From positions 327,809 through 391,808 of the forward strand of contig OZ223198.1 of assembly GCA_965140345.1 (NCBI GenBank): a stretch of DNA of 64,000 bases, written 5' to 3'. The DNA comes from Candidatus Kapaibacterium sp. Its GTDB lineage: Bacteria > Bacteroidota > Ignavibacteria > Kapaibacteriales > UBA2268. Below are positions 14,144 through 63,622 of the stretch, piece by piece. The notes below the pieces were generated by a model. That model was not told where the DNA came from, did no database searches, and saw only the letters and a list, made by a program, of their open reading frames with translations. Made by a program: the position numbers and the translations under genes. Within the stretch, counting starts at the first letter, position 1. Each line of letters starts with the position of its first letter.

Positions 14144-14460
14144 CGCTTATATATGTAAATCGTTGTGTCAAATTTAACTTCGTTTCTTCTGATCATATCA
14201 TTCTCCAAATACCAGACATGAACAGAACCTGAGTCAATATCATAGTCAGTATTTTCTTTAATTTTTTCAAGATCATCCAACCAGTAAAAACTTCTAGTGA
14301 TTCTTATCGAATCGATCGGTTCTGCCTCCGTAGCTTCATCTTTATCGTAAGTGATCTCAATTTTGCTAGCTTCTGAAACAAGGAAGTCGGTTACTGTTGA
14401 GCAACCAGTAATGAAAAGAAACACAAAGACAACAACAATTCTCATGCTCCTGAACTCCAT
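14140..14460 (-). CDS. small lipoprotein (possible spanin or exclusion lipoprotein)
   Basis: Signal peptide MRIVVVFVFLFITGCS with a lipobox Cys. 106 aa. Sits next to the lysis genes. Confidence 0.4.
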   Translation of the reverse strand: MEFRSMRIVVVFVFLFITGCSTVTDFLVSEASKIEITYDKDEATEAEPIDSIRITRSFYWLDDLEKIKENTDYDIDSGSVHVWYLENDMIRRNEVKFDTTIYIYKR

Positions 14461-16044: not shown

Positions 16045-16258
16045 TGATCTTGTTTACTAACTCAAATCCCACTTTTAACTTCTGGGCATCTGTCATTTGC
16101 TGCCATTGAGCTTTTATTCTTCTTGCTTCATTAACAACATCTTTTGCGAATACAGATACATCAGCCATTTCAGCTGTATTTGCTAGTGAAATATCTGCAG
16201 TTCTGTTTGTTCCGTATTCAATTAGACCTGCTATTTTTAAAATCAAATTATCCATCAT
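16016..16258 (-). CDS. hypothetical protein (80 aa)
   Basis: ORF track; coupled within the operon. Confidence 0.3.
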   Translation of the reverse strand: MMDNLILKIAGLIEYGTNRTADISLANTAEMADVSVFAKDVVNEARRIKAQWQQMTDAQKLKVGFELVNKINGACNGKAQ

Positions 16259-16589
16259 TTTTCCTATTAGTATGAAAATCTACTACATGCTTCGATAAGC
16301 CTTCCTGCACTTGTTTTGTGATATTATCTAACTTGTCGAAGATGCGCTGTACAATTTCTGCATCTACTTTGTCAGAGTCCTCTAAAGCCTTTACTCTTTG
16401 CTTTAGTAGTTGTACCTGGCTATTCGTTTCAGTCCATTTACTTTGATCTTCTAATGCCGCTTGAACTGCTTTTTCAAGTAATTCAGCATTATCCTTTTTT
16501 ATTTGTTTTCTTACAGCAATAATACTAATCGCTAATGCAACAAAGGTTAGTATTGTTCCAATAAGTTGTATCCAGTTATCCGTTGTCAT
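16248..16589 (-). CDS. membrane-anchored coiled-coil protein (possible holin/antiholin partner)
   Basis: Single N-terminal TM (WIQLIGTILTFVALAISIIAV) followed by a coiled coil. Confidence 0.35.
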   Translation of the reverse strand: MTTDNWIQLIGTILTFVALAISIIAVRKQIKKDNAELLEKAVQAALEDQSKWTETNSQVQLLKQRVKALEDSDKVDAEIVQRIFDKLDNITKQVQEGLSKHVVDFHTNRKNDG

Positions 16590-17043
16590 TTATTTTGCCC
16601 TGTATTTCCCGGATTGGTATCTGAAATTTGCTGTTAGTTTCAAATACTACTTGTTTCCATGTGCTATTATCTCGACCTTTCTGTGTTTTGCTTACTTCAC
16701 GTGGTATCAATGGAGTATAATTATCTACTTTAGCATTAGTCATCCTCGTAAGAACTTCTTCTGTTAGTTTATCTAAGAAATTATCCTCATCAGTGATGTA
16801 TTTGCTTCCGATGGAAACAACAATTCTTATGGTTTTCCTATAAAACCCTTGATCAGTCATCCCTTTTTCGAACAGAGGGTGATTGTTGGTTATCGGGGAT
16901 GCTAACTCGTGCCAAACATAAATGCCTCCTTTGTCTGTCAAAAGTAGACAATCACGTAAGAATAGAGCTAGAGGAGAAGCTTTAATAGGTACTTCCTTGA
17001 TTAGCTCTTCCAAATCACTTGCTAATATGTCTGCTAGTATCAA
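16576..17043 (-). CDS. hypothetical head-tail joining protein
   Basis: 155 aa. Located between capsid and tail genes. Confidence 0.3.
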   Translation of the reverse strand: MILADILASDLEELIKEVPIKASPLALFLRDCLLLTDKGGIYVWHELASPITNNHPLFEKGMTDQGFYRKTIRIVVSIGSKYITDEDNFLDKLTEEVLTRMTNAKVDNYTPLIPREVSKTQKGRDNSTWKQVVFETNSKFQIPIREIQGKINDNG

Positions 17044-20267: not shown

Positions 20268-21641
20268 ATGAGTACAAGTTTGCTGGATAACTTTAAAGTT
20301 ATACCTATTTCAAAACTAGTCAAAGCGGATTGGAATTATAAAACAGATGACCCTGTAAAAAAAGAAAAACTCAAAGAGAATATTAAACGAAATGGACAAA
20401 TAGAGAATGTTTTAGTTCGCTTGCTGGATACAGGATTCTACGAGATTGTCAATGGTAATCATCGACAAGATGTATTTGTAGAATTAGGATTCGAGGAAGT
20501 GGTAGCTTTTGATTTTGGGAAAATATCACTCGCAGCTGCACAGAGAATAGCTATTGAAACAAATGAAACTAAGTTTGATTCGGATACTGACAAATTAGCA
20601 AAGCTACTTCAAGAAATAAAACTTGAGTTTAACGAAGAAGATTTAAAGGCAACAATGCCATTTGACGAAGATGAGTTTTCGGAGATGATGTCAAGAGAAA
20701 TAACTGAGATTGATTTTGATCTTGACAACGATAAAGACTATTCAGAGATTGAAGAAGATAATTTTGATGAAGAGCTTCCGGAGAAGCCTAAAACTAAAAC
20801 AGGAGATCTATACGAACTAGGTATACATCGTCTTCTTTGCGGTGACTCTACAGACATCAATGACGTTAATTCTTTAATGGATGGTCAGACAGCCCACCTG
20901 CTTTATACAGATCCACCTTATAATATCGCTTACACTGAATTTAATAAGCTAAGAGGTTCGAGCAGAGAAGAACCAAAAGGAAAAGATTGGGGTGAAGAAT
21001 ATAACTCTTCATGGACTGATTATATGCCTGATGATCAATTCCAAAAATTCTTAATAGACTTCCTTGCATTAGCAAAGAAACATCTTATTCCTTACGGACA
21101 TTACTATGTCTGGCATGCTACAAATTATTACAGAGAAACCTTGAAGGCTTTTGAAGCAAATGAAATTCCTTACGATAAAGTACCAATTATCTGGAAAAAG
21201 AATGTTGCACCTCTTTCATGGGTTCATTATAAACGTATCCATGAGCCATGCATCTTTGGAGGGTTAGGAGCTGTTAACGGAGCTGGTAAAGCGGCAAGAT
21301 GGTTCGGACCAAATAATGAAACTACAGTATGGTGTATTGACAGAGATCCGAATAACAGTTATATCCATCCAACTCAAAAACCTGTAGCTTTGGCAGCCAG
21401 AGCCTTAAAGAATAGTTCGCAGCCTGGTGAAATTGTATTAGATATGTTTGCCGGTTCAGGTACTACTCTTATTTGTTCTGACAAGATGAGTAGAATCTGT
21501 TTTACCATGGAAAAAGAGCCTAAATTCTGTGATATGATTGTCAAAAGATATATAAAGCATTGTAAGGAATCAGATCAGTCCTGTGTAGTAAAAAGGAATG
21601 GTATAGAAATAGAAGAAAGCTTTTTTGAAGAAACTGAATAA
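20268..21641 (+). CDS. ParB-like nuclease domain fused to DNA N6-adenine/N4-cytosine methyltransferase
   Basis: N-terminus with FYEIVNGNHRQD (ParB/Srx fold). C-terminus with DPPY (motif IV) and HPTQKP...FAGSGTT (motif I), a beta-class amino-methyltransferase. Lies directly upstream of the terminase genes. Confidence 0.85.
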   Translation: MSTSLLDNFKVIPISKLVKADWNYKTDDPVKKEKLKENIKRNGQIENVLVRLLDTGFYEIVNGNHRQDVFVELGFEEVVAFDFGKISLAAAQRIAIETNETKFDSDTDKLAKLLQEIKLEFNEEDLKATMPFDEDEFSEMMSREITEIDFDLDNDKDYSEIEEDNFDEELPEKPKTKTGDLYELGIHRLLCGDSTDINDVNSLMDGQTAHLLYTDPPYNIAYTEFNKLRGSSREEPKGKDWGEEYNSSWTDYMPDDQFQKFLIDFLALAKKHLIPYGHYYVWHATNYYRETLKAFEANEIPYDKVPIIWKKNVAPLSWVHYKRIHEPCIFGGLGAVNGAGKAARWFGPNNETTVWCIDRDPNNSYIHPTQKPVALAARALKNSSQPGEIVLDMFAGSGTTLICSDKMSRICFTMEKEPKFCDMIVKRYIKHCKESDQSCVVKRNGIEIEESFFEETE

Positions 21642-28383: not shown

Positions 28384-29361
28384 CTATGATAGCTCTTCTC
28401 GTCTTCTAAGGAAGTAACTTATAAGCTCGTCTGGCAAGAAATTTTTCAAAGTTTGTTCGTTTTCTGTTCTAAAATATTCGTGTTTAGAATATTCTATCAA
28501 GCGAGCCAAGAAAATAATCCAATTAGAAATTTTTTCAAAACTGGTTGTTCCTGCGTGTTGCCTAAATTCCACAGAACCATGTCTCCAAAAAGCTCGGCTA
28601 TTTAATTTGTAATATCTATTTCTATGTGTAATTGAATTTTCTAGTCTTTCTAATCCGTCTTGCATCGAAGCTGTGTGGCCAACCGCATCTATCAATTCTT
28701 CAAAATTTGTTACTCTCATTGATTTACAATACCTATTGCTGGAGCCTCTTCTACTTTGTGGCATAAAAGAATCTATTAAATATTCAAGCTTAGCATAATT
28801 TTTGTACAAGTTTTTCCAAGTCTCAAGTTGAAAGTCAGAAGCATCAAAATGAATATGTAAGCCACAAGAGCGGTTTATCTTTGCACCTAAGCCTCGCAAA
28901 ATCAAGGTTACCGTTTTAAGTTGTCTCAAACCTGCCTCTCCAGTAAGTTTAGGACTAACCAATTCAAAAGTATTTGTTCCATTAAGTGAACCGTCTGTTG
29001 TGACTTTCCAATGATTTCTGGTTCGGTGATTATATCTTTCATGTTCCGTTGTGATACCTGCTGCAGTTAATTCAGTAACAAGTTCGTCTCTTGTTATTCC
29101 GAAGGCTTCAATCTCAACCCCAAAAGTGTGATTGAAAGTAAAATGTGTTAGGTTATAAGTTGCTTCTTCAACTACCTCTCTTAAGTTCCTTCTTCTTGAC
29201 CTCACCCTATCAGGATAAGATCGAGCAAAAACATTTTGTACGAAACCATAGCTACATCCCAATGCAACAGTTACTTCAGTTCTTGTTAATCCTAACTCTA
29301 GAAGTTGTTTTATTTTCCAAGTTTTGTTTTGATTTGCGTTTAAAATCTCTTGCCTTGTCAT
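28384..29361 (-). CDS. HTH domain fused to amidoligase (Amidoligase_2 / GCS2-like carboxylate-amine ligase)
   Basis: N-terminal HTH (KIKQLLELGLTRTEVTVALGCSYGFVQNVF). Ligase motifs FGVEIEAFG (G.E.E), ELVSP, GLHIHFD (H.H) and GSVEFRQHAGT (E.R) in the order seen in Amidoligase_2 / GCS2 enzymes. Confidence 0.55.
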   Translation of the reverse strand: MTRQEILNANQNKTWKIKQLLELGLTRTEVTVALGCSYGFVQNVFARSYPDRVRSRRRNLREVVEEATYNLTHFTFNHTFGVEIEAFGITRDELVTELTAAGITTEHERYNHRTRNHWKVTTDGSLNGTNTFELVSPKLTGEAGLRQLKTVTLILRGLGAKINRSCGLHIHFDASDFQLETWKNLYKNYAKLEYLIDSFMPQSRRGSSNRYCKSMRVTNFEELIDAVGHTASMQDGLERLENSITHRNRYYKLNSRAFWRHGSVEFRQHAGTTSFEKISNWIIFLARLIEYSKHEYFRTENEQTLKNFLPDELISYFLRRREELS

Positions 29362-41053: not shown

Positions 41054-41121
41054 TTTGTATGTGTTATAAAAAATGTATATATTTTTGTATGTTTTTATGT
41101 ACTTATTTTTGTATGTTTTTT
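41054..41121. promoter_or_regulatory. operator-like direct repeats (TATTTTTGTATGTTTTT x2, plus a third TTTGTATGT)
   Basis: TTTGTATGT occurs at 41054, 41084 and 41108. The two longer copies share about 17 bp. Located in the promoter region of the 62-aa gene. Confidence 0.4.
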
Positions 41122-41384: not shown

Positions 41385-41828
41385 ATGCAATATAAAATAT
41401 TGTTTTATACAATGCAAATTATTTTTACAAATATTCAAAAATATTTTATGACACAGTTCGAAAGATTAGAAAAAGTGGCTAAGTTGCATTTTGGCTCATT
41501 AGCTGGTGTGGCTAGATTGTTAGATAAAAAACCTCAATCATTTTATTCTTATAAAAGCAGAGATAAATTTGGTGAATTACTAATTCTACAATTGGCTGAG
41601 ATTGGTATAAACCCCAAATATATCACTGATGGCGAAGAACCGATGCTTCTCGAAAGCAATAAATCTCCAAAGAAGAAACCCGAACCGAATGTAGCATCAG
41701 TAGACTATGTAGAAATGATAGAGCTTCCTGACATAACAAAGATGAGCCCGGAACAGATGCGCAAATGGCGGGAAGCAGCTTTAAAAACGATTGATAAAAT
41801 AGATAAGATTTTGGAGGTTTTGGGGTGA
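41385..41828 (+). CDS. HTH transcriptional regulator (cI/Cro-like); likely start at ATG 41448
   Basis: LEKVAKLHFGSLAGVARLLDKKPQSFYSY is an XRE-type HTH. Divergent from the minus-strand regulatory genes. Its stop overlaps the next start. Confidence 0.5.
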   Translation: MQYKILFYTMQIIFTNIQKYFMTQFERLEKVAKLHFGSLAGVARLLDKKPQSFYSYKSRDKFGELLILQLAEIGINPKYITDGEEPMLLESNKSPKKKPEPNVASVDYVEMIELPDITKMSPEQMRKWREAALKTIDKIDKILEVLG

Positions 41829-42688
41829 GTAAAAAAACATTAGAATCAGATGGAATGAATTATGTTAGCATTGAGTTCGTTTGCCCAATATGCAATTATA
41901 AGAATATTGAGTCTTATATAAACATTCCAGCTGCTAAAACAATTGATGGGGGGACATCGCAAAATTTTACTGAAATGCTTTGTTCTAATTGCTTATCTTG
42001 TTACGGAATCAATATTATTTTATCTGAACATGGTGAAACTATTTTAGATATTGATCCTGATGTCGAAGGGCTCACAATTCTTGCTTATCACAGTGATATT
42101 ATCAATACATTTAGTAAAACCAATCAAACTTCAAGAATCTTTATCTATGAAGATTCTATAGAAAATCTGGAAAAGTTGAAAGAAATTGCTAATGTTACTT
42201 TGGAAGATGAATTAAATTTCGTGATTCTTCAGATGACTTTTGCACAATCCTTGACAACTCTTGAAAGTTATCTGTATAAGACTATCTCCTATAATATTAA
42301 CAGTCATGCTGTATTTCTTAAACGATTTGTTGCATCATATCAGTTCCCAAATAACAATCAACACAAGCTTAGCTTTAACAAAATATTTGAAGCGCAGAAA
42401 TGGATGCAGGGCATAATTGATGGCTTGCTTCAGAACCAGATATATCATAGACTTGATCAAGTCAACAAATTGTATGAGGCAGCTTTTGGCTTTAAACTTC
42501 CTGAGTATAGCAAAATTGACGACATCATCAAACTAAGACATGATATAGTCCATCGTAATGGAGAAACTAAAGACGGAGAAAAGATCAATATCACTCCGGA
42601 TGAACTCAAATCAGCAATAGACAGCATAGAAGAATTCATTAAGGCCACTGAAGTAAAGGTGCAGAAAGCTGTTAAAGATCTAGCATAA
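41825..42688 (+). CDS. zinc-ribbon protein with C-terminal HEPN-like R-x4-H motif (candidate toxin/abortive-infection effector)
   Basis: N-terminal CPICNYKN...CSNCLSC (4 Cys). C-terminal KLRHDIVHRNG fits an Rx4H motif. Translationally coupled to the HTH regulator. Confidence 0.4.
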   Translation: MSKKTLESDGMNYVSIEFVCPICNYKNIESYINIPAAKTIDGGTSQNFTEMLCSNCLSCYGINIILSEHGETILDIDPDVEGLTILAYHSDIINTFSKTNQTSRIFIYEDSIENLEKLKEIANVTLEDELNFVILQMTFAQSLTTLESYLYKTISYNINSHAVFLKRFVASYQFPNNNQHKLSFNKIFEAQKWMQGIIDGLLQNQIYHRLDQVNKLYEAAFGFKLPEYSKIDDIIKLRHDIVHRNGETKDGEKINITPDELKSAIDSIEEFIKATEVKVQKAVKDLA

Positions 42689-42856
42689 GATAACTTATTA
42701 GAAATTGTCAACTCGTTTAGATTAGCTCTATCTTAAATTTATAGTTAATACTATCCCTCTACTTGCAAAATATACTTGCAAATTCTTTCTAAAATACCTA
42801 ATATTATAAAAATGAACATGATATTATAAATTCTTGTCACAACTGACAAGAATTTA

Positions 42857-43111
42857 TTGCTGTTTTGGACAATTATTATATCATCCACTTTGATAAGGCA
42901 TAAAACTTTGAAATATCTAAAAACTTTACTTTTAGTCCTTTTGTTCGGTATAATTAGCTTTTCTTGTGAAAGTAGCACATCAAATGAAGACAATTCAAAT
43001 AATGTCAAAACAGGGACAACATCTACTCAGTGCTTAGGGATAACTGAAGATGGAACACGGTGTGAGCGCAAAACCACAGATCCTAGTGGTTACTGTTGGC
43101 AACATAAATAG
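42857..43111 (+). CDS. small lipoprotein with C-terminal Cys/His tail motif (...C-x6-C-x-R-x-T-x-DPSGYCWQHK)
   Basis: Lipoprotein signal (LLFGIISFSC), an S/T/N-rich linker, and a terminal CLGITEDGTRCERKTTDPSGYCWQHK nearly identical to the C-terminus of the nuclease at 44184..45125. Confidence 0.55.
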   Translation: MLFWTIIISSTLIRHKTLKYLKTLLLVLLFGIISFSCESSTSNEDNSNNVKTGTTSTQCLGITEDGTRCERKTTDPSGYCWQHK

Positions 43112-43128
43112 AAATCTTACATAAACAT

Positions 43129-44181
43129 GTGGATCAACTGATGAAGATCAAAAAATATGCTGTAATATTTCTGAGCTTAATTTCTTTCTATGCAATTCTT
43201 AACCTGTTAGTATTTTTTGAACATGAGCAAAATGAAGCTTTAGAGACTATATGGGATGCCATATGGTATTTCATAATAACTATTTCTACAGTTGGGTATG
43301 GAGATGCTTATCCTGTGACATTAGGAGGTAAAATCATTGGAACTATCATAGTTCTATTGAGTGCTGGATTTCTAAGTGTTATCATTGGTAAAATATCTTA
43401 TAGTTTATCAGAAATTGGGAAAAAAAAGAAAATGGGATATTACGGAACAAAGTTTGAAGATCATGTGGTAATAATTGGTTGGAATAATTTTACCAAAATG
43501 ATAGCAGAAGAATTGTTAGAGGCAAATCAACGAATTGCGATCGTAATAGATGAAAAGAGCCATATAGATAGTATCTATCAAAAGTATAAGAGTTTTGAAA
43601 AGAACTTATTTTTACTATGTGCAGAATATGATGACTATGAGACTTTTGAAAAAGTTAATATTAGTAAAGCAAAGATTGTACATCTAGGTCTAGAATCGGA
43701 TTCTGCTGAATTGGTAGCCATAATAAATCTAAAAAATATTTATGGAGATCTCAAATTTGTTGTAATCCTGGAAGACAAGTCCTTATCCCAAACTTTTAAA
43801 GCTGCCGGGGTAACTTACGTATTGTCGAAAAATGAGCTATCATCTAAGTTGTTAGCTAGCTATATATTTGAACCTGAAGTTGCAGATTTCACAGTTGATT
43901 TATTATCCAAGGCAGTAGACGATGATGACTTTGATATCCAGCAATTCAGAGTTATAGAATCTAACCCTATGATAGGTAAATCTTTATCTGATTTAGTAAA
44001 TTTAGCTACTTCTGAAGGTGTAAAAACTTCAGTGATAGCACTTAAAAGGAAAGATCGCGATATCGATAAACTTCCATTACTTACTTCAGAGATCAAGTTA
44101 GGTGATATCATATTATTTATCAATAATTATTCAGCTCAAGAATTTATAACAAATTTGTTTAGAATTGAGCAGGGAATCTAA
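43129..44181 (+). CDS. K+ channel with RCK/TrkA domains (MthK-like)
   Basis: Two TM helices flank the selectivity-filter signature TVGYGD. A cytoplasmic Rossmann-like RCK region (HVVIIGWNNFTKMIAEEL) and a TrkA-C-like C-terminus follow. Confidence 0.85.
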   Translation: MDQLMKIKKYAVIFLSLISFYAILNLLVFFEHEQNEALETIWDAIWYFIITISTVGYGDAYPVTLGGKIIGTIIVLLSAGFLSVIIGKISYSLSEIGKKKKMGYYGTKFEDHVVIIGWNNFTKMIAEELLEANQRIAIVIDEKSHIDSIYQKYKSFEKNLFLLCAEYDDYETFEKVNISKAKIVHLGLESDSAELVAIINLKNIYGDLKFVVILEDKSLSQTFKAAGVTYVLSKNELSSKLLASYIFEPEVADFTVDLLSKAVDDDDFDIQQFRVIESNPMIGKSLSDLVNLATSEGVKTSVIALKRKDRDIDKLPLLTSEIKLGDIILFINNYSAQEFITNLFRIEQGI

Positions 44182-44183
44182 TA

Positions 44184-45125
44184 ATGCTTAGATATTTACT
44201 TTTTATAAAGATTCTATTTTTACTACTCTTTCTTCCCAATAGCTATTCTTCAGAGCTCATAGGAATTAATTCAAATACTGAATTCGGAATTCCAAAAGAT
44301 AAAGATTCTACGGATGATTTTATAATAGTAAGACCTCAATACACGCTGTCATACAATCATATTAAAGGAGTACCCAATTGGGTTTCCTATAATCTAGATA
44401 TGCATTGGATAGGCGATCAAGAAAGATATGATGGAAAATTCGTAAAGGATACAGTGCTACCTTTAGAGTGGCAAATCAGTCATGATGACTACACTAATTC
44501 TGGTTATGACCGTGGACATATGGTTATGAGTAAACAAAGGACTAAAAATGAAGAAGATAATTACTCAACATTCTACATGACCAATGTAATCCCTCAAACG
44601 CCAGATTTGAATAGAATCTTATGGCTTAGCCTAGAGAAATACTGCAATAAACTAGCTGTCGTTAATGATAAAGAACTTTACGTTATTACTGGAGGAATCT
44701 TCCATTCAGACACTACATTAAACAATGCCCGAAAAGTTGCAATTCCAGACAGTTGTTTCAAAATCATAATAGTTATGAATAAAGACGAAGGTTTAGATCA
44801 GATAAATGAAACAACAGAAACAATATCAGTAGTAATGCCGAATGCTTTTGAAATCAATGATAAAAATTGGAAGAATTACTCGACAAGTATCGATGCCATA
44901 GAATATTCCACAGGTTATGATTTTTTATCTAATATTCCTGATGAATTAGAAAACAAGATAGAATCAAAAGTTACTTATCAAAAAGAGATTCCGATTGAAA
45001 AGAAATCAGAAGTGAAGAAGGAAGTTCCATCGAAAACTGTAAGATGTAAAGGAAGAACAAAATCAGGAAGACAATGTAAAAGAATGACTAAAGATCCCAG
45101 TGGCTATTGTTGGCAGCATAAATAA
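44184..45125 (+). CDS. secreted DNA/RNA non-specific endonuclease (DRGH family) with C-terminal Cys/His tail
   Basis: Signal peptide. Catalytic SGYDRGHMV and flanking conserved blocks (NWVSYNL, NVIPQTP). Ends in RCKGRTKSGRQCKRMTKDPSGYCWQHK. Its start overlaps the channel stop (TAATG). Confidence 0.8.
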   Translation: MLRYLLFIKILFLLLFLPNSYSSELIGINSNTEFGIPKDKDSTDDFIIVRPQYTLSYNHIKGVPNWVSYNLDMHWIGDQERYDGKFVKDTVLPLEWQISHDDYTNSGYDRGHMVMSKQRTKNEEDNYSTFYMTNVIPQTPDLNRILWLSLEKYCNKLAVVNDKELYVITGGIFHSDTTLNNARKVAIPDSCFKIIIVMNKDEGLDQINETTETISVVMPNAFEINDKNWKNYSTSIDAIEYSTGYDFLSNIPDELENKIESKVTYQKEIPIEKKSEVKKEVPSKTVRCKGRTKSGRQCKRMTKDPSGYCWQHK

Positions 45126-45158
45126 TTATTCAGTTTTTTAATTACAAATGGAGATAAT

Positions 45159-46607
45159 ATGTTAATCCTTAAGCTCATTACCTGGTTCGCAGTAATTGTG
45201 ACCATTGTTTCTTTTATTGTGTTACTATTAGAACAAAAAGGCAGAAATCCAATTAAACAACTTGGTTCAGCGCAATTGATATTTATTACAATTTTCAGTG
45301 CAATTATTGGGAGTGTTTTAGGGTATATCGAATATCGGAGTGACCCTGCATATAAAGTATTTTCTAACAGAGAAATCCAAGCTTCGAAGTTAATTTACGG
45401 AGAGATTGGTATAGAACTAGCTAAATATCATACACTCGTTGCAGACCTAAAAGAATATGCTGAGTTGTACTCTTTATCAATGCAAGATTCTATACTTGCA
45501 AGCATTGATATATTAAACCACATTCATCATAACCTGGCGAAATTATCAAATACAAAGTATATAAGGAATAATTTAGAACAACAATTCAGCTTGCTTTCTA
45601 ATACTACTATACCTGTTTCAGAAATAAATTTGTTTTATAAGGCACTTGAAACAAATACATCAGAAATAAAAGATTACTACGAATTAGCTCAAAGATGGAC
45701 TCCTGAAAATCTCGGAGTTGATTTGAGCCGTAAGCTAAATCATCTCTATTTTGAAACTTTATCTTCTAGTTCAGCTATGCTATATTATGACTATTTAGGT
45801 TTATTAGCACAAGCTCCCAGTGAAATTCAAGATCAATTCAATTTAGAATTATCTCCAATGTTAACAAGCTTCCCATCTACCAAAGTCTTGACATTAACTG
45901 AAGCAGAGGCATTATCCACAAAGGAATATAACAAACAAATAGAACTTATGAATGATTTAGCAGGATTAATTGCACTTGGCGATGCTAAACAAAGGGAGAT
46001 TGAAGAAAATTTTGAGAGTATAGTTTTGAAACAAGAAAAAAATGAACTATTGAAATCAGAATTAGATATAAAAAAACAGCAGCTAAAAGACGCTTATTCC
46101 AGAATTTATGAGAAAAACAAAATTAGTAAAGAAGAAGACCAGTGGACTATGTTTGGCAAAATCACGAAAATATCGGCTCTAAAAATGTACAAAGAAGCAA
46201 TCGGAGAATTGGACAAGTTTATACTTTACAATAAGGACAAGGATCCAAATGTAGAAGAATATTCAAGATCTATTCAACAGTATTATGCATTTTTGGACAC
46301 ATACAAACAAAACAATGAACCATATCCAACTATATTAGATATGCCGATCAATAAACTTGGACTAATTGCTATGATGATGAAAGATAACAAACAACATAGC
46401 TGTTTGAAAGTTGGTGATATTATTATTACAAAAAATAAGACACCAATATATGATCAAGATCAATTTTTTGCTCTTAAAACAGGAGAAGAAGTTGAATATA
46501 CAATCTTTAGAGCTAGTAATTTGCCCGAAAATCCGTTTATGGAACTTAAAAGTAAAAAGGGAGATCCTTTAATTTTATTAGCAAACGTGTTTCAAAAAAT
46601 CGATTAA
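45159..46607 (+). CDS. membrane-anchored coiled-coil protein (2 N-terminal TM helices)
   Basis: 482 aa. N-terminal TM helices and a long helical region. No known domain recognised. Confidence 0.45.
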   Translation: MLILKLITWFAVIVTIVSFIVLLLEQKGRNPIKQLGSAQLIFITIFSAIIGSVLGYIEYRSDPAYKVFSNREIQASKLIYGEIGIELAKYHTLVADLKEYAELYSLSMQDSILASIDILNHIHHNLAKLSNTKYIRNNLEQQFSLLSNTTIPVSEINLFYKALETNTSEIKDYYELAQRWTPENLGVDLSRKLNHLYFETLSSSSAMLYYDYLGLLAQAPSEIQDQFNLELSPMLTSFPSTKVLTLTEAEALSTKEYNKQIELMNDLAGLIALGDAKQREIEENFESIVLKQEKNELLKSELDIKKQQLKDAYSRIYEKNKISKEEDQWTMFGKITKISALKMYKEAIGELDKFILYNKDKDPNVEEYSRSIQQYYAFLDTYKQNNEPYPTILDMPINKLGLIAMMMKDNKQHSCLKVGDIIITKNKTPIYDQDQFFALKTGEEVEYTIFRASNLPENPFMELKSKKGDPLILLANVFQKID

Positions 46608-46726
46608 GCATTACATATTAAAAATATACGATATTATTTTTTTAGCTCTCAAATGAACTTATTTCGAAGTACTTTGACAGCAATAGACTTAATTTTACAA
46701 GAAAGAAACTAACGTAAGGTGCAGTC

Positions 46727-47569
46727 ATGAAATTATTATTTTCTTCTGTTTTTATCATTTGTATCCTTTTGACTTACAACACTCACTTGGTTGCTACGGA
46801 TTTAAAATTTCACGGAAGTTGTGGGTATTCTTTGGATATAGAGAAACAAGCTATTACTATCTCGATTGATACAATCACGAACAGCTCTAACAACACATCC
46901 GGTAGTATAAAAGTGAGCGTATGTCTTACATATAGCCCGTTTAATGGGGAGACACAAACCGCCTTCAATCTAGCAGAATATCAGTTTAGCGAAGTACTTG
47001 AAACTAATTATTGTTATGCTGGTGTTCAACGTACTCTGCAAACTCAAAATCCAAAACAAGATGAATATCATATTGTATTTCTATTATGGGAATATACTGA
47101 GGAAGGATGGGTCGTTAGAGATTACAGGAATTTCAAAGACAGAATTACATTTAAAAAATATGACACGTGGGCAGACTTTCAGAAAACGCAAAGAAGAATG
47201 GAGCTAAAAGCACTACAAGCTACAAATAATTTTTTAGCTACTGGCGATTTTGAAGAGTATATGAAGCAGCATAAAGAGGTTTTTGAAACTTTTTATGAAG
47301 CAGCCAAAAGGCTTGATCCTCAAACTTTACAATTCTATTGTTCAATCTATTGTAATTCTAGTAACAATACCAAAACTACTAGATCCAAAGAAGATTTGGA
47401 ATGGAGTATCAATAGGACTAAAGAGTTATTAAAAGATGTAGAAGATCAGAAAGAAGCTGATTCAAAGAATCGATCCGGTGTTGTAACTGAAGCCTACAGA
47501 AATCAACTAATTGTAAAATTAAGAAGTCAGTTAGATGATTACAAAACCCAATTGATATATGCAAAATAA
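46727..47569 (+). CDS. secreted hypothetical protein
   Basis: Signal peptide, 280 aa, Cys-containing. Confidence 0.45.
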   Translation: MKLLFSSVFIICILLTYNTHLVATDLKFHGSCGYSLDIEKQAITISIDTITNSSNNTSGSIKVSVCLTYSPFNGETQTAFNLAEYQFSEVLETNYCYAGVQRTLQTQNPKQDEYHIVFLLWEYTEEGWVVRDYRNFKDRITFKKYDTWADFQKTQRRMELKALQATNNFLATGDFEEYMKQHKEVFETFYEAAKRLDPQTLQFYCSIYCNSSNNTKTTRSKEDLEWSINRTKELLKDVEDQKEADSKNRSGVVTEAYRNQLIVKLRSQLDDYKTQLIYAK

Positions 47570-47745
47570 TAGAATAACTTAAAGAATTGAGTAAGTAGTT
47601 CATCTATAATATCTGTTCAAACACAGTCTTACTAAGAGTTTATTCTGCAAATAATACTCTGGTGATATAAATGAGATACTGACTGAACTGTACAAAATCA
47701 AAGAATTAAATGCAAAACACATGAAATTAAACTAGGATTTCTAGA

Positions 47746-48795
47746 ATGAAACAGACTTTGTATATTTTCATTTTATTAATATTTATTGGAATTGCCAGCG
47801 CTCAAGACCATAATTACGATTGGGTAAAAAGCGTGCATACAAGCTTAGGCGTGCCGGTGGATTCGGATACAACAGATGACTATATCATTGTTAGACCTCA
47901 ATACGTTGTATCATATAACCATACGAAAGGAGTTCCCAATTGGGTAGCTTGGGAGTTAAACTCGAGCTGGTATGGAGATGTAGAGAGACATACAGGAAAT
48001 TTTATTACAGATAAATCTTTGCCTGAAAATTGGCAAATAAAGCATAGCGATTATACCAATTCAGGATATGATCGGGGGCATATGGTGCGTTCTGAAGAAA
48101 GAACTGCAACAGAAGAAGACAATATATCAACATTCCTTTTAACAAATATTATTCCTCAAAGACCTAACCTTAACAGAAAAGTATGGTTGAAGTTCGAATA
48201 TTATTGCGAAGACCTTTGCAAAGAACAAAACAAAGAGTTATTTGTCTATTCTGGAGGTATTTATTTCGCAGATAGTACTTTGAAATCTGAAGGGAAAGTT
48301 GCAGTACCTGAATCATGTTTTAAGATTGTAGTTGTTCTTGAAGCAGATCAAAGCATAAATGATATTACAAAAGACACAGAAGTAATTGCTGTATTAATGC
48401 CTAATGATGACGAAGTAGGCGCTAACTGGGAAGACTATCAGACTACGGTTGACCAAATTGAGAGTCTAACTGGGTATGATTTTATGAGTTCAGTCTCAGA
48501 TGATGTTGAGAATGCTTTAGAAAGTGCTTCTACTTATATTGAAGAAACAGAGATCACAGATTTACTTAAAGTTTTTCCTAATCCAGTTCAAGATATAGCT
48601 ATTATTAATCTGCCTGTTGGGGAATACAAAAAAATTAAACTATGTGATTTAGCTGGACGCACTTACTCAATTTCTAATCTAATAATATCAGATGATTCAA
48701 TAAGCATTGACATTTCTAATCTTCCATCAGGGAAGTACTTTATAACATTTGATATCGGAAAAGAGGTGTACAGAGCTGAATTTTTGAAGGAATAA
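47746..48795 (+). CDS. secreted DNA/RNA non-specific endonuclease (DRGH family) with T9SS C-terminal sorting domain
   Basis: Paralogue of 44184..45125 (same SGYDRGHMV, NWVAWEL, NIIPQRP blocks). The C-terminus KVFPNPVQDIAIINLP...YRAEFLKE matches the Por/T9SS C-terminal-domain consensus. Confidence 0.8.
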   Translation: MKQTLYIFILLIFIGIASAQDHNYDWVKSVHTSLGVPVDSDTTDDYIIVRPQYVVSYNHTKGVPNWVAWELNSSWYGDVERHTGNFITDKSLPENWQIKHSDYTNSGYDRGHMVRSEERTATEEDNISTFLLTNIIPQRPNLNRKVWLKFEYYCEDLCKEQNKELFVYSGGIYFADSTLKSEGKVAVPESCFKIVVVLEADQSINDITKDTEVIAVLMPNDDEVGANWEDYQTTVDQIESLTGYDFMSSVSDDVENALESASTYIEETEITDLLKVFPNPVQDIAIINLPVGEYKKIKLCDLAGRTYSISNLIISDDSISIDISNLPSGKYFITFDIGKEVYRAEFLKE

Positions 48796-49100: not shown

Positions 49101-50078
49101 TTAAAACATCGATTCATTATACGAGCTATAACCGACTTTTGTCATAATCTCAGCTAATACATCAGAGTCAATTGGCCATTCAAGGCTTAAAGTGTAATTA
49201 GCTGAATTCAAAGAATAGAGGATATATAGTATTATTGGTTGCTTAGAGAGATAAGAGTTGTTTTCATAGAAATATTCATCTAACTCTTCAGAATTTTCTT
49301 TTACATATGACTCTATTTTATCAATATCTAGCGGAATCTTTTCTTCAAGCTTGAAGAAAAGATCTGTTAGTTCGATATCTAAGCTATCTTTATCATAACT
49401 TGGGAATCTAGTTTGATAAAGCTTTGTTAGCTGAAGTAATATATTATTGTATTTTCTGTTTTTATTGCTCATCATAGTTTTAATTGAACAAAAATAATCA
49501 TCAGTAGCTTCTAAAAGGGCTATAGATTTTGAAAGATTCCTCAATATTTCTGGATCATTTCTAAATGGACCTTTATAAGTAGTGTCATGACTTACTTCTG
49601 CAAGTGCATGTTGTAAAACAGTCCTTATCTGTATTTCACAAGTAATGAGATCCTTATTGCTTCTATCATCCTTTGGTTTTACAACGATATGCACAGATTG
49701 GTAATCAAAATTTTTAGGATTTACAAATGCCTCTTCTTGATAGTTTCTACTTACCTGTATGTCGATTTTATCGCATGATTTGAGACAATTTAACAAATTA
49801 ATAACTGAAACAGAATGTAGAAAAATGACTCTAACGCCAACTTTATCTTCAATATCCTTAATGGGATCCACATAATCTTTACGTCTGTATAAAGCCTTCT
49901 TTATGAATGAGTCGATATCCTTAATTCTTGGTTTAGATACAAGTTTTATATCAGCACTCAATTCAGAATCTGCCGAAATAATCTCACAAAGCACATTAGA
50001 AACATAGTTTCCCCATTTTTCTAATTCGTTCTTTATTGAGTCAAATTCACTGACTAACTGACTGATCTTGTCCTTCAT
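49101..50078 (-). CDS. RelA/SpoT-domain nucleotide pyrophosphokinase, synthetase-only (SAS/toxSAS-like) with a roughly 120-aa C-terminal extension
   Basis: Motifs in canonical order: KPRIKDIDSFIKKALYRR, IEDKVGVRVIFLH, DYQSVHIVV, CEIQIRTVLQHALAEVSHDTTYK. No HD hydrolase domain. Confidence 0.75.
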   Translation of the reverse strand: MKDKISQLVSEFDSIKNELEKWGNYVSNVLCEIISADSELSADIKLVSKPRIKDIDSFIKKALYRRKDYVDPIKDIEDKVGVRVIFLHSVSVINLLNCLKSCDKIDIQVSRNYQEEAFVNPKNFDYQSVHIVVKPKDDRSNKDLITCEIQIRTVLQHALAEVSHDTTYKGPFRNDPEILRNLSKSIALLEATDDYFCSIKTMMSNKNRKYNNILLQLTKLYQTRFPSYDKDSLDIELTDLFFKLEEKIPLDIDKIESYVKENSEELDEYFYENNSYLSKQPIILYILYSLNSANYTLSLEWPIDSDVLAEIMTKVGYSSYNESMF

Positions 50079-51133
50079 CCTCTTTTTGGCTTACCTTTAA
50101 TTTTTAAAACTGTATAATTTGGATTATCTATATCCAAAGTCTCTAATTCATCTTTTGTTGAAATGACGTTGACATTTAGATTGAAATTGTTATTAGGTCC
50201 TGAAATTACAACATTGTCGTTAAATTTCATACTGTCTTTTTCAATTTTCTTTTTGAGAAGTGTTGAATCCTTGGTAAAAGACAAAGGAAATTTTTTCAGT
50301 ATTTCCTCATGATATTGATCTAAGACTTCGATTTCGTCAGAGAAACACTTCTCTCCAAAAAGTTTGGGATTAAGTATATTTTGTTGATTATCTAGCATTT
50401 CTGCTTTTAATAAATTTGAGGCACTTGTTTTTTTTTCCCAACTACTTAACTGAGTATCAATGAAATTAGAAGTGCTATTATAAAACTCTTGAGATAATAA
50501 TTTTGAATTTTGAGAAGCATCAAAACCCAAGAAATCTTTATAGAAATAAGTAGCTGGAAAAGAATCTAGTCGAAATTGATCATCAAATAAATATGCACTA
50601 TATTCTGTTTCTATTTCTGTCTGCCTTTTTGATAATATACCAATTTTGTATAGCTTTTGGGATGGACTTAAGAATATGTCGCTTATCTTTTTAAGGTGCA
50701 ACTCTCCTTCCTTAGCTAAAGCGGTATGTAATTCAGCTTTAATAACAATGTATAATAATTGTAAACTCAATGGGTGCTTCGCTTCAATAATTATTAGATA
50801 ACCTCCAGGGATATTGCTTTTTGTTTGACTACTTGCTAATAACTCTGCAATATCTTTAGAAGATTCAATAAAATCATTATCTTCTAACTGTTCCAGTTTG
50901 TGACATATATCAAAAAAGCTCCCATCTTCTTTTTCCTCGATCTCTAGTTCAAAGGCTCTTGAATGCTTCCCAGCTGCATCAACTAGCCTTGTTTTAATTA
51001 AATCTTCAACATCATTCTCCATTAAAATTAAAGATTCAGAGGTGATTGTTTTTGCATGCTGTTCATTTGGTTCCTTCTTGAGTATCTCATGCATTATTGC
51101 TCTTGAAATTTTGATGTTTTTGTAATTGGTCAT
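50075..51133 (-). CDS. nucleoid-associated protein NdpA/YejK (NA37) family homologue
   Basis: N-terminal ISRAIMHEILKKEPN matches the YejK pattern INQIALHQLIKRDEQN. Further resemblances are GGYLIII (cf. GGFVLF), DFLGF (cf. DFLGA) and C-terminal TVLKIKGKPKRG (cf. TLTIKGTPPN). The comparison is against YejK recalled from memory. Confidence 0.55.
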   Translation of the reverse strand: MTNYKNIKISRAIMHEILKKEPNEQHAKTITSESLILMENDVEDLIKTRLVDAAGKHSRAFELEIEEKEDGSFFDICHKLEQLEDNDFIESSKDIAELLASSQTKSNIPGGYLIIIEAKHPLSLQLLYIVIKAELHTALAKEGELHLKKISDIFLSPSQKLYKIGILSKRQTEIETEYSAYLFDDQFRLDSFPATYFYKDFLGFDASQNSKLLSQEFYNSTSNFIDTQLSSWEKKTSASNLLKAEMLDNQQNILNPKLFGEKCFSDEIEVLDQYHEEILKKFPLSFTKDSTLLKKKIEKDSMKFNDNVVISGPNNNFNLNVNVISTKDELETLDIDNPNYTVLKIKGKPKRG

Positions 51134-51549
51134 AATATTTTACCCCATAAAAAATCAGTCATATATATTTTTCAAAATAACAAGCTAGATTAATATTGCT
51201 ATTTTCGACAATAAAGTATTGTTATAAATGACAAACAATAGTTAAAATGTATAGTACTAATATAAATATAGTATTATAATATTAATTTAATACAAGTATT
51301 TAAAAATATTTTATAGACATTAAAAACAACACATCCCTGAACTTACAATAGGCATATCTTTAGAGTATATTTAAAATTTATACTTAAAATAATCAAATTG
51401 CTATAAAATTACTAGTTGTTTAATTACATAACTTGTGCTATCATAAAGTATAATTAATATAAAATATGCAATACTTGTCATAATTGACAAATAATTATTG
51501 CATAAAAATACAAATGTTATTTAATACACGGTCTTAAAAGGGGTATACT

Positions 51550-52798: not shown

Positions 52799-53236
52799 AT
52801 GGCTAGAGGACAATACTCTCCCAATTTATCAGATGTGTTCGAAACGACAGAGCTAGAATTAAACAAATTCCTTACTTCCTATACTGCCGGACCAGGTATT
52901 AATGATATGGATGGTATGGAAAAAGTAACAGTTCCATTAATTGAAGGAATTAGAAAAGACAGAACTTATGTTCTCAAAGTTAATGGTGACTCAATGTCTC
53001 CGAAAATACAGGATAATGATACTCTACTTATTGATATAAACCCTTGCAAATATCAAACTGGTGACATTGTAGCAGTTTGTTTGAATGGAGATTATATGGT
53101 AAAAGTATATGATCCTGGATCTTACTGTTTATATCTTACTTCTATTAATCCAGAGTATGAACCTATAAGGGTATACGAAGAAGAGGACTCTTTGCAAATT
53201 CTAGGTAAAGTTATCAAAATTATTAGGGATGTATAA
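52799..53236 (+). CDS. standalone S24 (LexA/UmuD-type) peptidase domain protein
   Basis: VNGDSMSP (Ser nucleophile) and MVKVY (Lys) dyad with S24 spacing. 145 aa. No N-terminal HTH. Confidence 0.65.
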   Translation: MARGQYSPNLSDVFETTELELNKFLTSYTAGPGINDMDGMEKVTVPLIEGIRKDRTYVLKVNGDSMSPKIQDNDTLLIDINPCKYQTGDIVAVCLNGDYMVKVYDPGSYCLYLTSINPEYEPIRVYEEEDSLQILGKVIKIIRDV

Positions 53237-60742: not shown

Positions 60743-61966
60743 CTAATCCCAAGCCTTAAAAGCTTCTTTTACATCACTCTCAGCAATTTTAACATATTTT
60801 TGAAAAGATTGTCTCGATTTATGACCGGTAACTTTCATCACCGTTTCGGGAAGTATACCTAACTTCAAACTCAAAGTGATGAATGTTCGCCTAGCAGTAT
60901 GAGACGAAACTAGTTCATACTTTGGAATAATCTCTTCCTTTTTTGCACCGGCAATATACTTAGTTATTTTTATATCCTCACTTATACCTGCCAGTTGACA
61001 AAGTTTCTTGATATTTAGATGATATCTGGCTTTTGATCTGAATTGTATTGACTCAATAGGATGTTTCAAAAATATCTTGAAGAGTTTGCTAACTATTGGA
61101 ATAGTTACTTCTTCAGATGTTTTTTGAGTAGTCAATCTTATTTCTCTATTCTCCATATCTACATTCATTGGGCTAAGCTTCATAATATCTGATTGTCTTA
61201 AACCTGTATAGCATTGAATTAAAAAATAATACTTGCTCCAAAGCAATTTTTCAGTTTTTCCGGATAGTTCAAGCTCTTCTAATTTTTCTAATTCTTGGGT
61301 AGTCAATACTATCTTCGATGCAACTTTGTTTTCAAAAGAGAAGAATTTGTAATCCATGGATGTATTAATCTTTTCAATATAAGCGTAACTACAAATAGTC
61401 TTTATAAACTTAATATGTGAATGTATATATCCTGTGCTTAGATTTAGAGTATTTAAATATCTAATTAGAGACAAGAAAAATGGCTCATTGATATCATTGA
61501 ACAAAATTTGAATTTGTTGATCCTTCTCGAATCCTACAAGATTTTGATAAAGTTGATTATAAGTTTTAAGTGTATTGGAATTAAACCGATTGCCTCTTTG
61601 AGTCAATGCCTCTCCAGTTGCAAATCTTTTCAATAAATTTTCTGTATACTCTATAAAAGTAGTAAAATCACTCTGCTTTTTATTTAAAAAAGTCTTTAAT
61701 TGATGTCTTGACAGACTACCTATACCATGTTCCTCTTCCACCCTATTTACAAATCGCGTTATAGAACTAATCTTTTTATCTATCTGAGCATTCTTTTCAA
61801 AATGATTTTTTTCTCTCGTAGAAATCCTTTTGGTTCGTTTGCTAAAGTTTGCTGGATTAATACTAACACCAGAAGAAATCTGAATCCTAAACCCATTCAT
61901 CGCTATATTAAGCATTATAACCGCTTTGTTGTTTTTGACAGATAAATATGGAGATATTCTAACCAT
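60743..61966 (-). CDS. tyrosine site-specific integrase (Bacteroidetes phage/CTn type)
   Basis: C-terminal catalytic region with HTARRTF, GHKS and terminal Tyr-containing block. 407 aa. Last gene before host mla genes. Confidence 0.8.
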   Translation of the reverse strand: MVRISPYLSVKNNKAVIMLNIAMNGFRIQISSGVSINPANFSKRTKRISTREKNHFEKNAQIDKKISSITRFVNRVEEEHGIGSLSRHQLKTFLNKKQSDFTTFIEYTENLLKRFATGEALTQRGNRFNSNTLKTYNQLYQNLVGFEKDQQIQILFNDINEPFFLSLIRYLNTLNLSTGYIHSHIKFIKTICSYAYIEKINTSMDYKFFSFENKVASKIVLTTQELEKLEELELSGKTEKLLWSKYYFLIQCYTGLRQSDIMKLSPMNVDMENREIRLTTQKTSEEVTIPIVSKLFKIFLKHPIESIQFRSKARYHLNIKKLCQLAGISEDIKITKYIAGAKKEEIIPKYELVSSHTARRTFITLSLKLGILPETVMKVTGHKSRQSFQKYVKIAESDVKEAFKAWD

Positions 61967-62460: not shown

Positions 62461-63622
62461 TTGCAGATTAAGTTAAGGGCTGCTCAGATGGCAGAAAACA
62501 TATCTAAAATAAAAGCTAATTTCGAAAAAGATAATGATATACTTTTTATAGAACTGGAAGGTAAAATTTCCATCTATGAGAGTAAAAAAATATATCCTTC
62601 TAAAGAGTACTTCAAAGGCATTAAAGCTGTTTCCGTAGATTTTTCTAAAGTGCATGACTTTGACTCTTATATAGTTGTCTATCTGGAAAAGCTAAAAGAA
62701 ATATCTGATTCAAATAGTGCTGACTTCAAAGTTCGTGGTTTGAATCCTAAAATGGAAAGCTTCATTGCAGCTTTATCTAAAACAGATAATCAATCTGATA
62801 TATCAACAGATAAAATAGGCTTCCTCAGAAGTCACATAATTCAAATTGGTGAAAACTTTAAACAGCAGGCAAAAGATACTTTTTCCTTTATTGAGCTTTT
62901 GGGTGAAATAATTATTGGGATTTTCAAGCTCTTTATACGCCCGGGAAGTATACGCTGGAAGGACTTTCCGCATCACTTTTCTAAAGCAGGCGTATTTGCT
63001 GTTCCGATTTACAATTTTGATCGTATTTCTGATTGGCCTTATTTCAGGTTATCAGGGAGCGGTTCAGCTATCGCAATTTGGAGCGGATATATTCATAGCT
63101 GATCTGGTTGGAATTTCAATTACCAGAGAGCTCTCCCCTCTTATGGTTGCTATACTTGTCGCAGGCAGGTCAGGTTCAGCTTTTGCTGCGGAAATAGGTA
63201 CTATGAAGGTTGCAGAAGAAGTAGATGCACTTGACTCTATGGGTTATAACATAGTATCATTTTTAGTGCTCCCTAGAGTTCTGGCTGTTACATTAGCTAT
63301 GCCATTACTTACTATGCTTTGCAATATTGCAGGAGTTGGTGGTGGTCTTATAGCTGCTCTTACCACTTTGGATATTACTATTTCAGGCTACTTAAATGAG
63401 TTACAACTTGCCGTAAGTATGGGAGACATATTTAGTGGACTTTTTAAATCTTTAATTTTTGGATTTCTGGTTGCAACCATAGGCTGTTTCCGTGGTCTGC
63501 AGGTTCGAGGCGGTGCAGAAAGTGTAGGGCGCTTTACAACAGCTTCAGTAGTAACCGGTGTCTTCATGATCATTTTCACTGATGCAATATTTACTTTCAT
63601 TTTCCAGGTACTGAATATATGA
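62461..63622 (+). pseudogene. mlaE: STAS-domain/MlaE-family ABC transporter permease, apparently frameshifted (two overlapping ORFs)
   Basis: ORF 62461..63102 carries a STAS-like N-terminus and the MlaE start (PGSIRWKDF...KAGVFAVPI). The MlaE sequence then continues in the +1 frame as ORF 62915..63622 (TILIVFLIGLISGYQGAVQLSQFGA...RELSPLMVAILVAGRSGSAFAAEIGTMKV). The frames switch near 63000 at a T-run. Confidence 0.6.

Follow-up and report, generated by a model that had tools for sequence, protein, structure and literature searches.

Membrane-coupled defence systems in which a membrane or ion-conducting protein is paired with DNA binding or with a nuclease include Hailong (the HalA channel and the HalB nucleotidyltransferase, NTase), Zorya (ZorAB and nucleases), SNIPE and Kiwa (PMC13434031; PMC13586616). 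In Hailong, an ion-channel effector is combined with an NTase making inhibitory oligo-dA, and Zorya and SNIPE are built on a MotAB-like stator or on a membrane-anchored nuclease facing the cytoplasm (PMC13434031). The present analysis deals with a cluster of six genes (positions 42,857 to 48,795) in a stretch of 64,000 nucleotides (nt) of Candidatus Kapaibacterium sp. (contig OZ223198.1, positions 327,809 to 391,808), hereafter called the window, which encodes an MthK-type K+ channel together with two putative exported endonucleases. The first three of these genes constitute a core trio of channel, nuclease and DUF5763 knuckle, and this trio is a real, recurrent association that has been reassembled with varying gene order and channel type. 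Among better known relatives of its parts, Sda1 and Spd1 are prophage-encoded secreted DNases of streptococci, the classic DNase "morons", and bacterial channels made of a two-transmembrane (2TM) pore and an RCK domain, to which the window channel may be likened, are represented by YugO of Bacillus subtilis. Prophage DNase morons, MthK-like channels and cargo of the type IX secretion system (T9SS) are each already known, while the literature search and the database models yielded no description of a prophage-borne trio of channel, nuclease and C3H knuckle.

All six open reading frames (ORFs) reported in a sequence-only reading of the stretch were present on the + strand, with products of 84, 350, 313, 482, 280 and 349 amino acids (aa):

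42857..43111, + strand: mini-lipoprotein with a C-terminal DUF5763 C3H knuckle (tail 43031-43108; DUF5763, 5.6e-7)
43129..44181, + strand: MthK-type K+ channel, 2TM pore and RCK domain (Ion_trans_2, 2.8e-13; TrkA_N, 1.5e-12)
44184..45125, + strand: nuclease 1, with signal peptide, Endonuclease_NS domain (1.2e-50) and basic DUF5763 tail (45045-45122)
45159..46607, + strand: 482-aa membrane protein with two TM helices, followed by a coiled-coil and a PDZ-like domain predicted to be periplasmic
46727..47569, + strand: 280-aa orphan protein with signal peptide, belonging to no family
47746..48795, + strand: nuclease 2, with signal peptide, Endonuclease_NS domain (6.8e-51) and T9SS type-A C-terminal domain (~48571-48792)

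These genes had been described as a single coupled operon. Probably, they represent a mosaic of at least three units rather than one machine, as the 482-aa protein belongs to a separate family, the 280-aa protein is an orphan, and the nuclease cassette is mobile on its own. The first unit would comprise the tightly spaced genes of the DUF5763-tailed mini-lipoprotein, the MthK-type RCK K+ channel and the DUF5763-tailed NucA-like nuclease, the second would consist of the 2-TM/PDZ-like protein of a defence-like family and the orphan secreted protein, and the third of the other NucA-like nuclease with its T9SS C-terminal domain. The lipoprotein and channel genes are separated by 17 nt. The start of nuclease 1 had been thought to overlap the channel stop, but the TAA (44179-44181) and the ATG at 44184 are 2 nt apart (TAATAATG).

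What the cluster has in common with Hailong, Zorya, SNIPE and Kiwa is the logic of a membrane protein joined to DNA binding or a nuclease at the envelope, as well as the location in a mobile-element hotspot. In contrast to Hailong, the profile scan revealed no NTase domain in any neighbour, and the window channel is RCK-gated rather than HalA-like. Zorya differs in that no MotA/ExbB or OmpA-like domains were detected near the cluster by the same scan, and SNIPE in that a DUF4041-type membrane nuclease is lacking, the window nucleases being exported and not cytoplasmic. None of the six proteins matched the profiles of PADLOC v2, which contains no Hailong models, HalA homology lying outside that test. 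Judged by sequence, no known defence system appears to match the cluster.

Gene neighbourhoods were surveyed at 80 loci of the channel and 86 of the nuclease, covering ~2 Mb of flanking DNA in all. A nuclease was found near a channel homolog in one of the 80 channel loci (L016), and an ion channel near a nuclease in two of the 86 nuclease loci (L095 and L083), in agreement with the earlier view that the adjacency is unusual. As to the possibility that the adjacency is coincidental and absent from homologous islands, it is present in the syntenic prophage of L095, and also in L016 and L083, an outcome in favour of the sequence-only reading. Nuclease and channel occur together only in L016, L083 and L095, and the same three loci are the only ones with convincing DUF5763 tails; an ion channel lies within ~3.5 kb in all three of these additional loci that combine DUF5763 and nuclease.

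The three loci differ in their organization. In L016, the nuclease is followed by a 64-aa DUF5763 mini-lipoprotein, the K+ channel, a 6TM Ion_trans channel and a 146-aa secreted DUF5763 protein, with gaps of 26 nt and 4 nt. In L083, a nuclease-DUF5763 fusion (P0122) is convergent with a 768-aa 6TM Ion_trans+RCK/Castor channel, whose N-terminal half shares 45% identity with the second of the L016 channels. The L095 prophage shows synteny with the window in its D5 primase, early genes, helix-turn-helix (HTH) gene and S24, and its island consists of the S24 peptidase, a 168-aa secreted DUF5763 protein, the nuclease (62% identical to nuclease 2), a superfamily 1 (SF1) helicase and the K+ channel, followed by a basic-tailed lipoprotein, HipA_2 + DUF3037 and the integrase.

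Several genes of the L095 island deserve mention in their own right. The SF1/Schlafen-like helicase between nuclease and channel (10924-13248) and the HipA_2 kinase + DUF3037 pair downstream (15010-16660) are defence-like cargo. The lipoprotein after the channel (14371-14844) ends in a basic motif, GPRGGKYHLSPSGKKIY, with a weak PBCV_basic_adap match (20.8 bits), so that exported proteins encoded beside a channel have small basic tails of two kinds.

The window channel groups with chromosomal Kapaibacterium channels, and those of L095 and L016 group together. Since the channels of the four loci, and likewise their nucleases, are not one another's closest relatives, it seems that the trio was assembled repeatedly and not inherited as one block. 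Owing to the three-way coincidence that includes DUF5763, this recurrence is probably not due to chance; without DUF5763, a modest raw enrichment is seen, with 2 channels over ~765 kb flanking the nucleases and 1 nuclease over ~1.24 Mb flanking the channels. In the window and P0122, a single protein contains both nuclease and DUF5763, and in L016 and L095 they are encoded by separate neighbouring genes. Such a fused-versus-split pattern, which is classic evidence, suggests that the nuclease and DUF5763 work together. A search of the deposited phage collection gave no DNA match and, in protein mode, only pore-only channels and distant nucleases, and the IMG/VR scans gave many relatives of K+ channels that were pore-only or 6TM and four nuclease loci, none with the trio.

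With respect to DUF5763, the sequence-only reading had assigned the two nucleases different export tags, a Cys/His tail on nuclease 1 and a T9SS domain on nuclease 2. The T9SS domain stands, but the Cys/His tail is the zinc-knuckle-like DUF5763, which is also found on signal-less proteins. Nor is it unique to nuclease 1, since the mini-lipoprotein has it as well, with a DUF5763 score of 29.4 bits (PF19067; cut-off 26.3). The tail of nuclease 1 remains under that cut-off (15.5 bits), and in the alignment it has eight invariant positions (C, T, G, C, T, G, C, H) in common with five other tails. The last ten residues, DPSGYCWQHK, are identical in the mini-lipoprotein and nuclease 1, their codons differing synonymously. 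The motif has a spacing of C-x8-C-x10-11-C-x2-H. A profile made from six tails retrieved 83 proteins at E<=10 and 69 at E<=0.001, all of 40-91 aa. Among 56 pattern-matching proteins, 21 have a lipobox-like N-terminus, 19 an otherwise hydrophobic one and 16 no signal, and the mean net charge of the motif is +4.7.

Members of the family cross-match zf-TRM13_CCCH, WRC, zf-C3Hc3H ("potential DNA-binding domain") and Zf_WRKY19; for example, P0260 matches zf-TRM13_CCCH at 25.4 bits (cut-off 20.9) and P0280 matches Zf_WRKY19 at 27.9 bits (cut-off 27). In its C3H spacing and usually basic character, DUF5763 resembles the WRC, zf-TRM13_CCCH and zf-C3Hc3H fingers. However, the tails of the window match only DUF5763 and, below the cut-off, GvpO_arch_Nterm (NCBIfam), and the exported proteins that bear DUF5763 are an unusual setting for a zinc finger. 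The cross-matches to zinc-finger models point to DUF5763 as a C3H zinc knuckle that may bind nucleic acid, rather than an export tag.

The first protein of the cluster would be a lipoprotein, as in the sequence-only reading, but one probably shorter than 84 aa. The ORF has no in-frame ATG, and the listed TTG start overlaps a hairpin with 14-bp arms. Translation from TTG 42890 or 42908, one of which is probably the true start, gives a protein of 67-73 aa with a canonical signal, MKYLKTLLLVLLFGIISFSC. The lipobox-like signal from TTG 42908 was read by eye with the start codon uncertain, and lipoboxes are clearer in the homologs.

The DUF5763 motif was also observed at the end of small lipoproteins or secreted proteins encoded by the IMG/VR contigs L265, L267 and L270. 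In L250 (5151-8219), one of three further mini-lipoprotein loci that have no channel, a DUF5763 mini-lipoprotein is located near an Exo_endo_phos-family protein and a homolog of the 226-aa membrane protein of L095. The Exo_endo_phos family includes both nucleases and phosphatases; should the L250 protein be of the former kind, DUF5763 would have an association with nucleases of a second, unrelated family. Two further ideas on the motif were set aside. A role mainly as a channel-binding module disagrees with the absence of a channel from three mini-lipoprotein loci and several viral contigs, and with about a quarter of the family having no signal peptide. Pairing of an acidic lipoprotein tail with a basic nuclease tail fits the window and fails in L016.

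The identification of the nucleases as two DRGH paralogues was confirmed, each matching Endonuclease_NS at ~1e-50 with 46% identity between them. DRGH is present in both, and among 23 aligned homologs R110, G111 and H112 are invariant and D109 is conserved in at least 90%. Nuclease 2 matches the Anabaena NucA structures 1ZM8 and 2O3B at 1.7e-64. With Anabaena NucA and the Serratia nuclease, the window enzymes share the Endonuclease_NS match, the DRGH of the beta-beta-alpha-Me finger and a putative N-terminal secretion signal (hydrophobic in both nucleases, as judged by eye); they differ in having a C-terminal DUF5763 knuckle or T9SS domain and in being prophage-borne. No gene for a NuiA-like inhibitor was detected in the profile scan. 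Residues 276-348 of nuclease 2 match Por_Secre_tail (1.1e-9, 38.9 bits; cut-off 27) and TIGR04183 (32.6 bits; cut-off 23). The T9SS C-terminal domain is found on two more proteins of the window, and the T9SS machinery of the host is not visible within it. In Ignavibacteria, Kapabacteria and Bacteroidota, the nuclease family is widespread as a ~270-aa lipoprotein.

Nucleases of this type are also mobile on their own, in a discrete cassette of ~0.9 kb. The L016 nuclease gene recurs in the phage contig L262 with 91% nucleotide identity over exactly 917 bp, where it adjoins the integrase of a different phage and has neither channel nor DUF5763. With Sda1 and Spd1, the window enzymes have in common that they would be secreted non-specific DNases encoded as accessory genes near the lysogeny module of a temperate phage, in a discrete cassette. 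They differ in belonging to another phylum, in the T9SS export route and in being present in two copies; the streptococcal DNases are not known to be associated with a K+ channel or with C3H knuckle proteins.

The MthK-like K+ channel was likewise recognized by profile, and both the channel and the nuclease assignments held under such searches. Besides the Ion_trans_2 and TrkA_N matches, the channel has a TVGYGD selectivity filter at residues 53-58, and its residues 44-333 align with MthK structures (8DJB; E-value, 7.6e-15); the TrkA_C match (7e-5, 23.1 bits) is below the 27-bit Pfam cut-off. The order of 2TM pore, TVGYGD filter and RCK domain is that of MthK. In contrast, the window channel is prophage-borne, flanked by exported DUF5763 proteins, and has its ligand residues mostly replaced, with D184 of MthK changed to G, E210 to I, and only E212 kept as E. 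Because two of the three MthK Ca2+ ligands are replaced, a Ca2+-gated mechanism is not supported, and the channel would be MthK-like in architecture only. It has GWNNF where MthK has GWSES, a GW(N/S)xx motif taking the place of GxGxxG. The Met of its KKKKMG sequence aligns with MthK Met107, the internal start of the soluble RCK domain, and lies within the family consensus KKMG. No Rfam family matched within the window, and hence no riboswitch is indicated on the channel. The channel family is a common one: a database search gave 234 proteins at E<=1e-10, and 438 loci were confirmed in species-representative genomes, the majority of them from FCB-group bacteria.

We consider, with moderate confidence, that the cluster is part of an accessory hotspot of several units, the core trio of which deals with extracytoplasmic nucleic acid. 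From their sequences, both nucleases are predicted to be exported non-specific DNA/RNA endonucleases with their substrates outside the cytoplasm, nuclease 1 presumably in the periplasm and nuclease 2, via T9SS, at the cell surface or in the medium. The DUF5763 knuckle, which is usually basic, would bind nucleic acid or another polyanion, and would hold the nuclease or its lipid-anchored partner on the substrate. The channel would be co-expressed with the nuclease, and no specific link between the two is proposed. The genes of the trio may be co-transcribed, and their products may serve in scavenging of extracellular DNA, biofilm remodelling or exclusion of incoming DNA.

Several observations weigh against this interpretation. 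The trio is known from four loci only, two of which are related prophages, the nuclease is absent near 79 of the 80 channel homologs, and the channel is absent in 84 of the 86 nuclease loci. The two closest channel homologs (64% and 49% identity) have no nuclease nearby, and one of them adjoins trkH. Strict co-transcription is not conserved, as a helicase intervenes in L095 and the genes of L083 are convergent. Three other loci with a DUF5763 mini-lipoprotein are devoid of a channel, and DUF5763 proteins on viral contigs have neither channel nor nuclease nearby. As for DNA binding, the tail of the mini-lipoprotein in the window is net neutral rather than basic, the profile search found no relative of DUF5763 in the PDB, and the literature search no paper mentioning it. 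In addition, the signal peptides and the lipobox in this analysis were read by eye.

The second unit of the cluster differs from the core trio in its affinities. The family of the 482-aa protein is rare, with 40 relatives among 1.84 billion representatives (P0330, P0338, P0346 and P0361, and the loci L263/L264, were noted). Its longer relatives combine an N-terminal TIR_2 domain and a single TM helix with the coiled-coil/PDZ-like region of the 482-aa protein. The gene of its closest homolog adjoins a SIR2_2 gene, with nuclease and channel absent there. The 482-aa protein is thus probably an independent defence-like unit, and looks like a defence-type envelope sensor without the TIR module. The AlphaFold model obtained without an alignment was too poor for a fold search (pLDDT 38.1), and the same applies to the 280-aa protein (pLDDT 43.5), which has no Pfam, NCBIfam, PHROG or PADLOC family and no tblastn match in the fetched loci searched.

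The assignment of the cluster to a prophage-associated island proved correct. The window contains genes for a tape measure protein, head protease, large terminase, portal protein, D5-type primase and tyrosine integrase, and a host-type mlaE gene lies beyond the integrase. The other features relevant to this setting are as follows:

5833-7340: insertion sequence (IS) element, with 31-nt terminal inverted repeats (5833-5863 and 7310-7340) and a transposase ORF (6072-7286, - strand)
41385..41828, + strand: HTH regulator-like gene, 39% identical to L095 8067-8474, with a weak match to PHROG 8 (transcriptional regulator)
41825..42688, + strand: HEPN (RiboL-PSP) gene, defence-like (Pfam HEPN_RiboL-PSP, 1.9e-10)
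42826..42857, no strand: perfect inverted repeat with 14-bp arms, then a T-rich tail, just upstream of the mini-lipoprotein gene
49101..51133, - strand: RelA_SpoT-like and NA37-like genes overlapping by 4 nt (RelA_SpoT, 2e-18; NA37, 5.5e-13; PHROGs 32462 and 1974)
52799..53236, + strand: Peptidase_S24 gene (9.9e-22), 50% identical to L095 9211-9600
60743..61966, - strand: tyrosine integrase (Phage_integrase + SAM_5 + Arm-DNA-bind_5), the right end of the element
62915-63622: host-type MlaE permease gene, beyond the integrase

The element is an integrated, probably defective siphovirus-like prophage, and its host is more likely a Kapaibacteria/Ignavibacteria-like bacterium of the FCB group than one of the classical Bacteroidetes. 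The IS element lies directly downstream of the tape-measure ORF (7336-8886), the 3' end of which is inside the IS inverted repeat; as the IS splits the tape-measure gene, the prophage is probably defective. A 1164-aa ORF beyond the IS (2183-5677) may be the remainder of this gene. No direct repeats resembling attachment (att) sites were found within the window, so that the left end of the prophage is probably located outside it.

The six genes are placed between the early/regulatory genes of the prophage and its integrase, in an accessory region of ~19 kb that extends from the HTH regulator gene to the integrase. Their site is regarded, at an intermediate level of confidence, as the lysogeny-side accessory ("moron") hotspot of the prophage. 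The HTH gene marks the start of this region and overlaps the HEPN gene by 4 nt. Between the HTH gene and the S24 homolog of L095 there is a single gene, encoding 226 aa, and for this reason the segment from 41.8 to 52.8 kb behaves as an insertion hotspot. Its contents around the cluster include the HEPN gene, the RelA_SpoT/NA37 pair, the S24 peptidase and several T9SS cargo proteins. The RelA_SpoT-like gene matches PADLOC PDC-S33 (5.2e-13) only over the RelA_SpoT-domain region (residues 42-160), the NA37-like gene is of the nucleoid-associated type, and the pair is a candidate for another phage-borne accessory or defence-like unit.

Further details of the surroundings were recorded. The HEPN RiboL-PSP protein has a Cys-rich stretch at its N-terminus, and the overlapping HTH and HEPN genes may be an abortive infection (Abi) or toxin-like pair; L095 has the HTH gene without HEPN. 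Two tandem 24-nt repeats (92% identical) at 41073-41120, intergenic among the phage early/regulatory genes, may be operator sites. The inverted repeat at 42826..42857 is either the terminator of the HEPN gene or an operator. The palindrome TTGTCA-N4-TGACAA occurs at 42831-42852 and 51472-51493 (2 matches in the window versus a chance expectation of 0.03), and both copies lie 60-80 nt upstream of + strand genes for exported proteins, where they may be a shared operator. A scan for sigma-70 promoters gave 72 sites versus 57 expected and was thus uninformative. The phage also encodes an Amidoligase_2 protein (28384-29361) and a ParB-like/DNA-methyltransferase fusion (20268-21641). Phages fetched via the 387-aa early protein of the prophage have no more than one to five genes in common with the window and are uninformative on the island.

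Against this background, other explanations of the cluster can be assessed. One is that the trio, perhaps jointly with the 2-TM/PDZ protein, serves the lysogen for superinfection exclusion or anti-phage defence at the level of the envelope. In such a system, knuckles and periplasmic nuclease would intercept DNA, and the RCK K+ channel would shift the potential, blocking entry or aborting infection. We regard this as possible but unlikely. It is in line with a hotspot beside a phage regulator, with the defence-like neighbours in the window (HEPN, the TIR/SIR2_2-linked 482-aa family and RelA_SpoT with its PDC-S33 match) and in L095 (helicase and HipA_2+DUF3037 pair), with the predicted envelope location of all products, and with repeated assembly of the module with differing channel types. 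Precedents are provided by Hailong, SNIPE, Zorya and Kiwa, in which membrane or ion-channel parts are paired with DNA or nucleases (PMC13434031). However, the nuclease of SNIPE/Zorya faces the cytoplasm and those of the window are exported, nuclease 2 by T9SS. Neither a PADLOC match for any of the six proteins (0/6) nor an NTase, MotAB-like or other sensor partner emerged from the profile scans, and chromosomal lipoproteins of this nuclease family are common in the phyla concerned. Moreover, injected phage DNA is normally shielded while crossing the periplasm.

Alternatively, unrelated cargo genes may simply have piled up in one prophage hotspot, the recurrence reflecting shared ancestry or insertion preference. 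The hotspot is indeed a mosaic of unrelated genes, channel and nuclease homologs mostly occur apart, the nuclease is mobile as an autonomous cassette, L095 and the window are related phages, and the raw co-occurrence without DUF5763 is only mildly above expectation. Nevertheless, all three additional loci with DUF5763 and nuclease also have an ion channel, a combination seen at none of the other loci scanned; the loci vary in gene order, in channel type and in the lineage of the nuclease, which argues against one inherited block, and the spacing is very tight in both the window (17 and 2 nt) and L016 (26 and 4 nt). Such hitch-hiking is likewise considered possible but unlikely.

It is quite improbable, in our estimation, that the cluster represents a novel envelope-acting system of temperate phages, namely a DNA-entry alarm operating from outside the cytoplasm and excluding phage or transforming DNA. 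In that case, C3H-knuckle proteins would sense or capture DNA, the nuclease would destroy it, the K+ channel would alter the membrane potential, and the basic knuckle would possibly contact the acidic outer vestibule of the channel. The proposal of the sequence-only reading that K+ flux through the channel directly gates nuclease release or activation found no support and is hardly credible, for beyond tight gene spacing and recurrence of the pair nothing speaks for it, whereas the ordinary Sec signals and the T9SS domain of nuclease 2 indicate export routes that need no channel, the nuclease cassette is also found where no channel is present, the residues of the MthK Ca2+ site are mostly replaced, and we know of no mechanism tying K+ efflux to Sec or T9SS export.

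Returning to the interpretation of an accessory hotspot with a core trio acting on nucleic acid outside the cytoplasm, secreted DNases are well known as prophage cargo, but their recurrent pairing with an RCK K+ channel and exported C3H knuckles is not. Independently of the trio, attention is drawn to the rare family with a TIR domain or two TM helices and a periplasmic PDZ-like region, whose members are candidates for envelope sensors encoded in defence islands. Even with a pairing devoid of function, the locus would be a clear example of a prophage hotspot gathering unrelated envelope cargo. A functional pairing would bring membrane potential into the handling of extracellular DNA or into superinfection exclusion, and DUF5763, a large mini-protein family also found on viral contigs, would obtain its first function.

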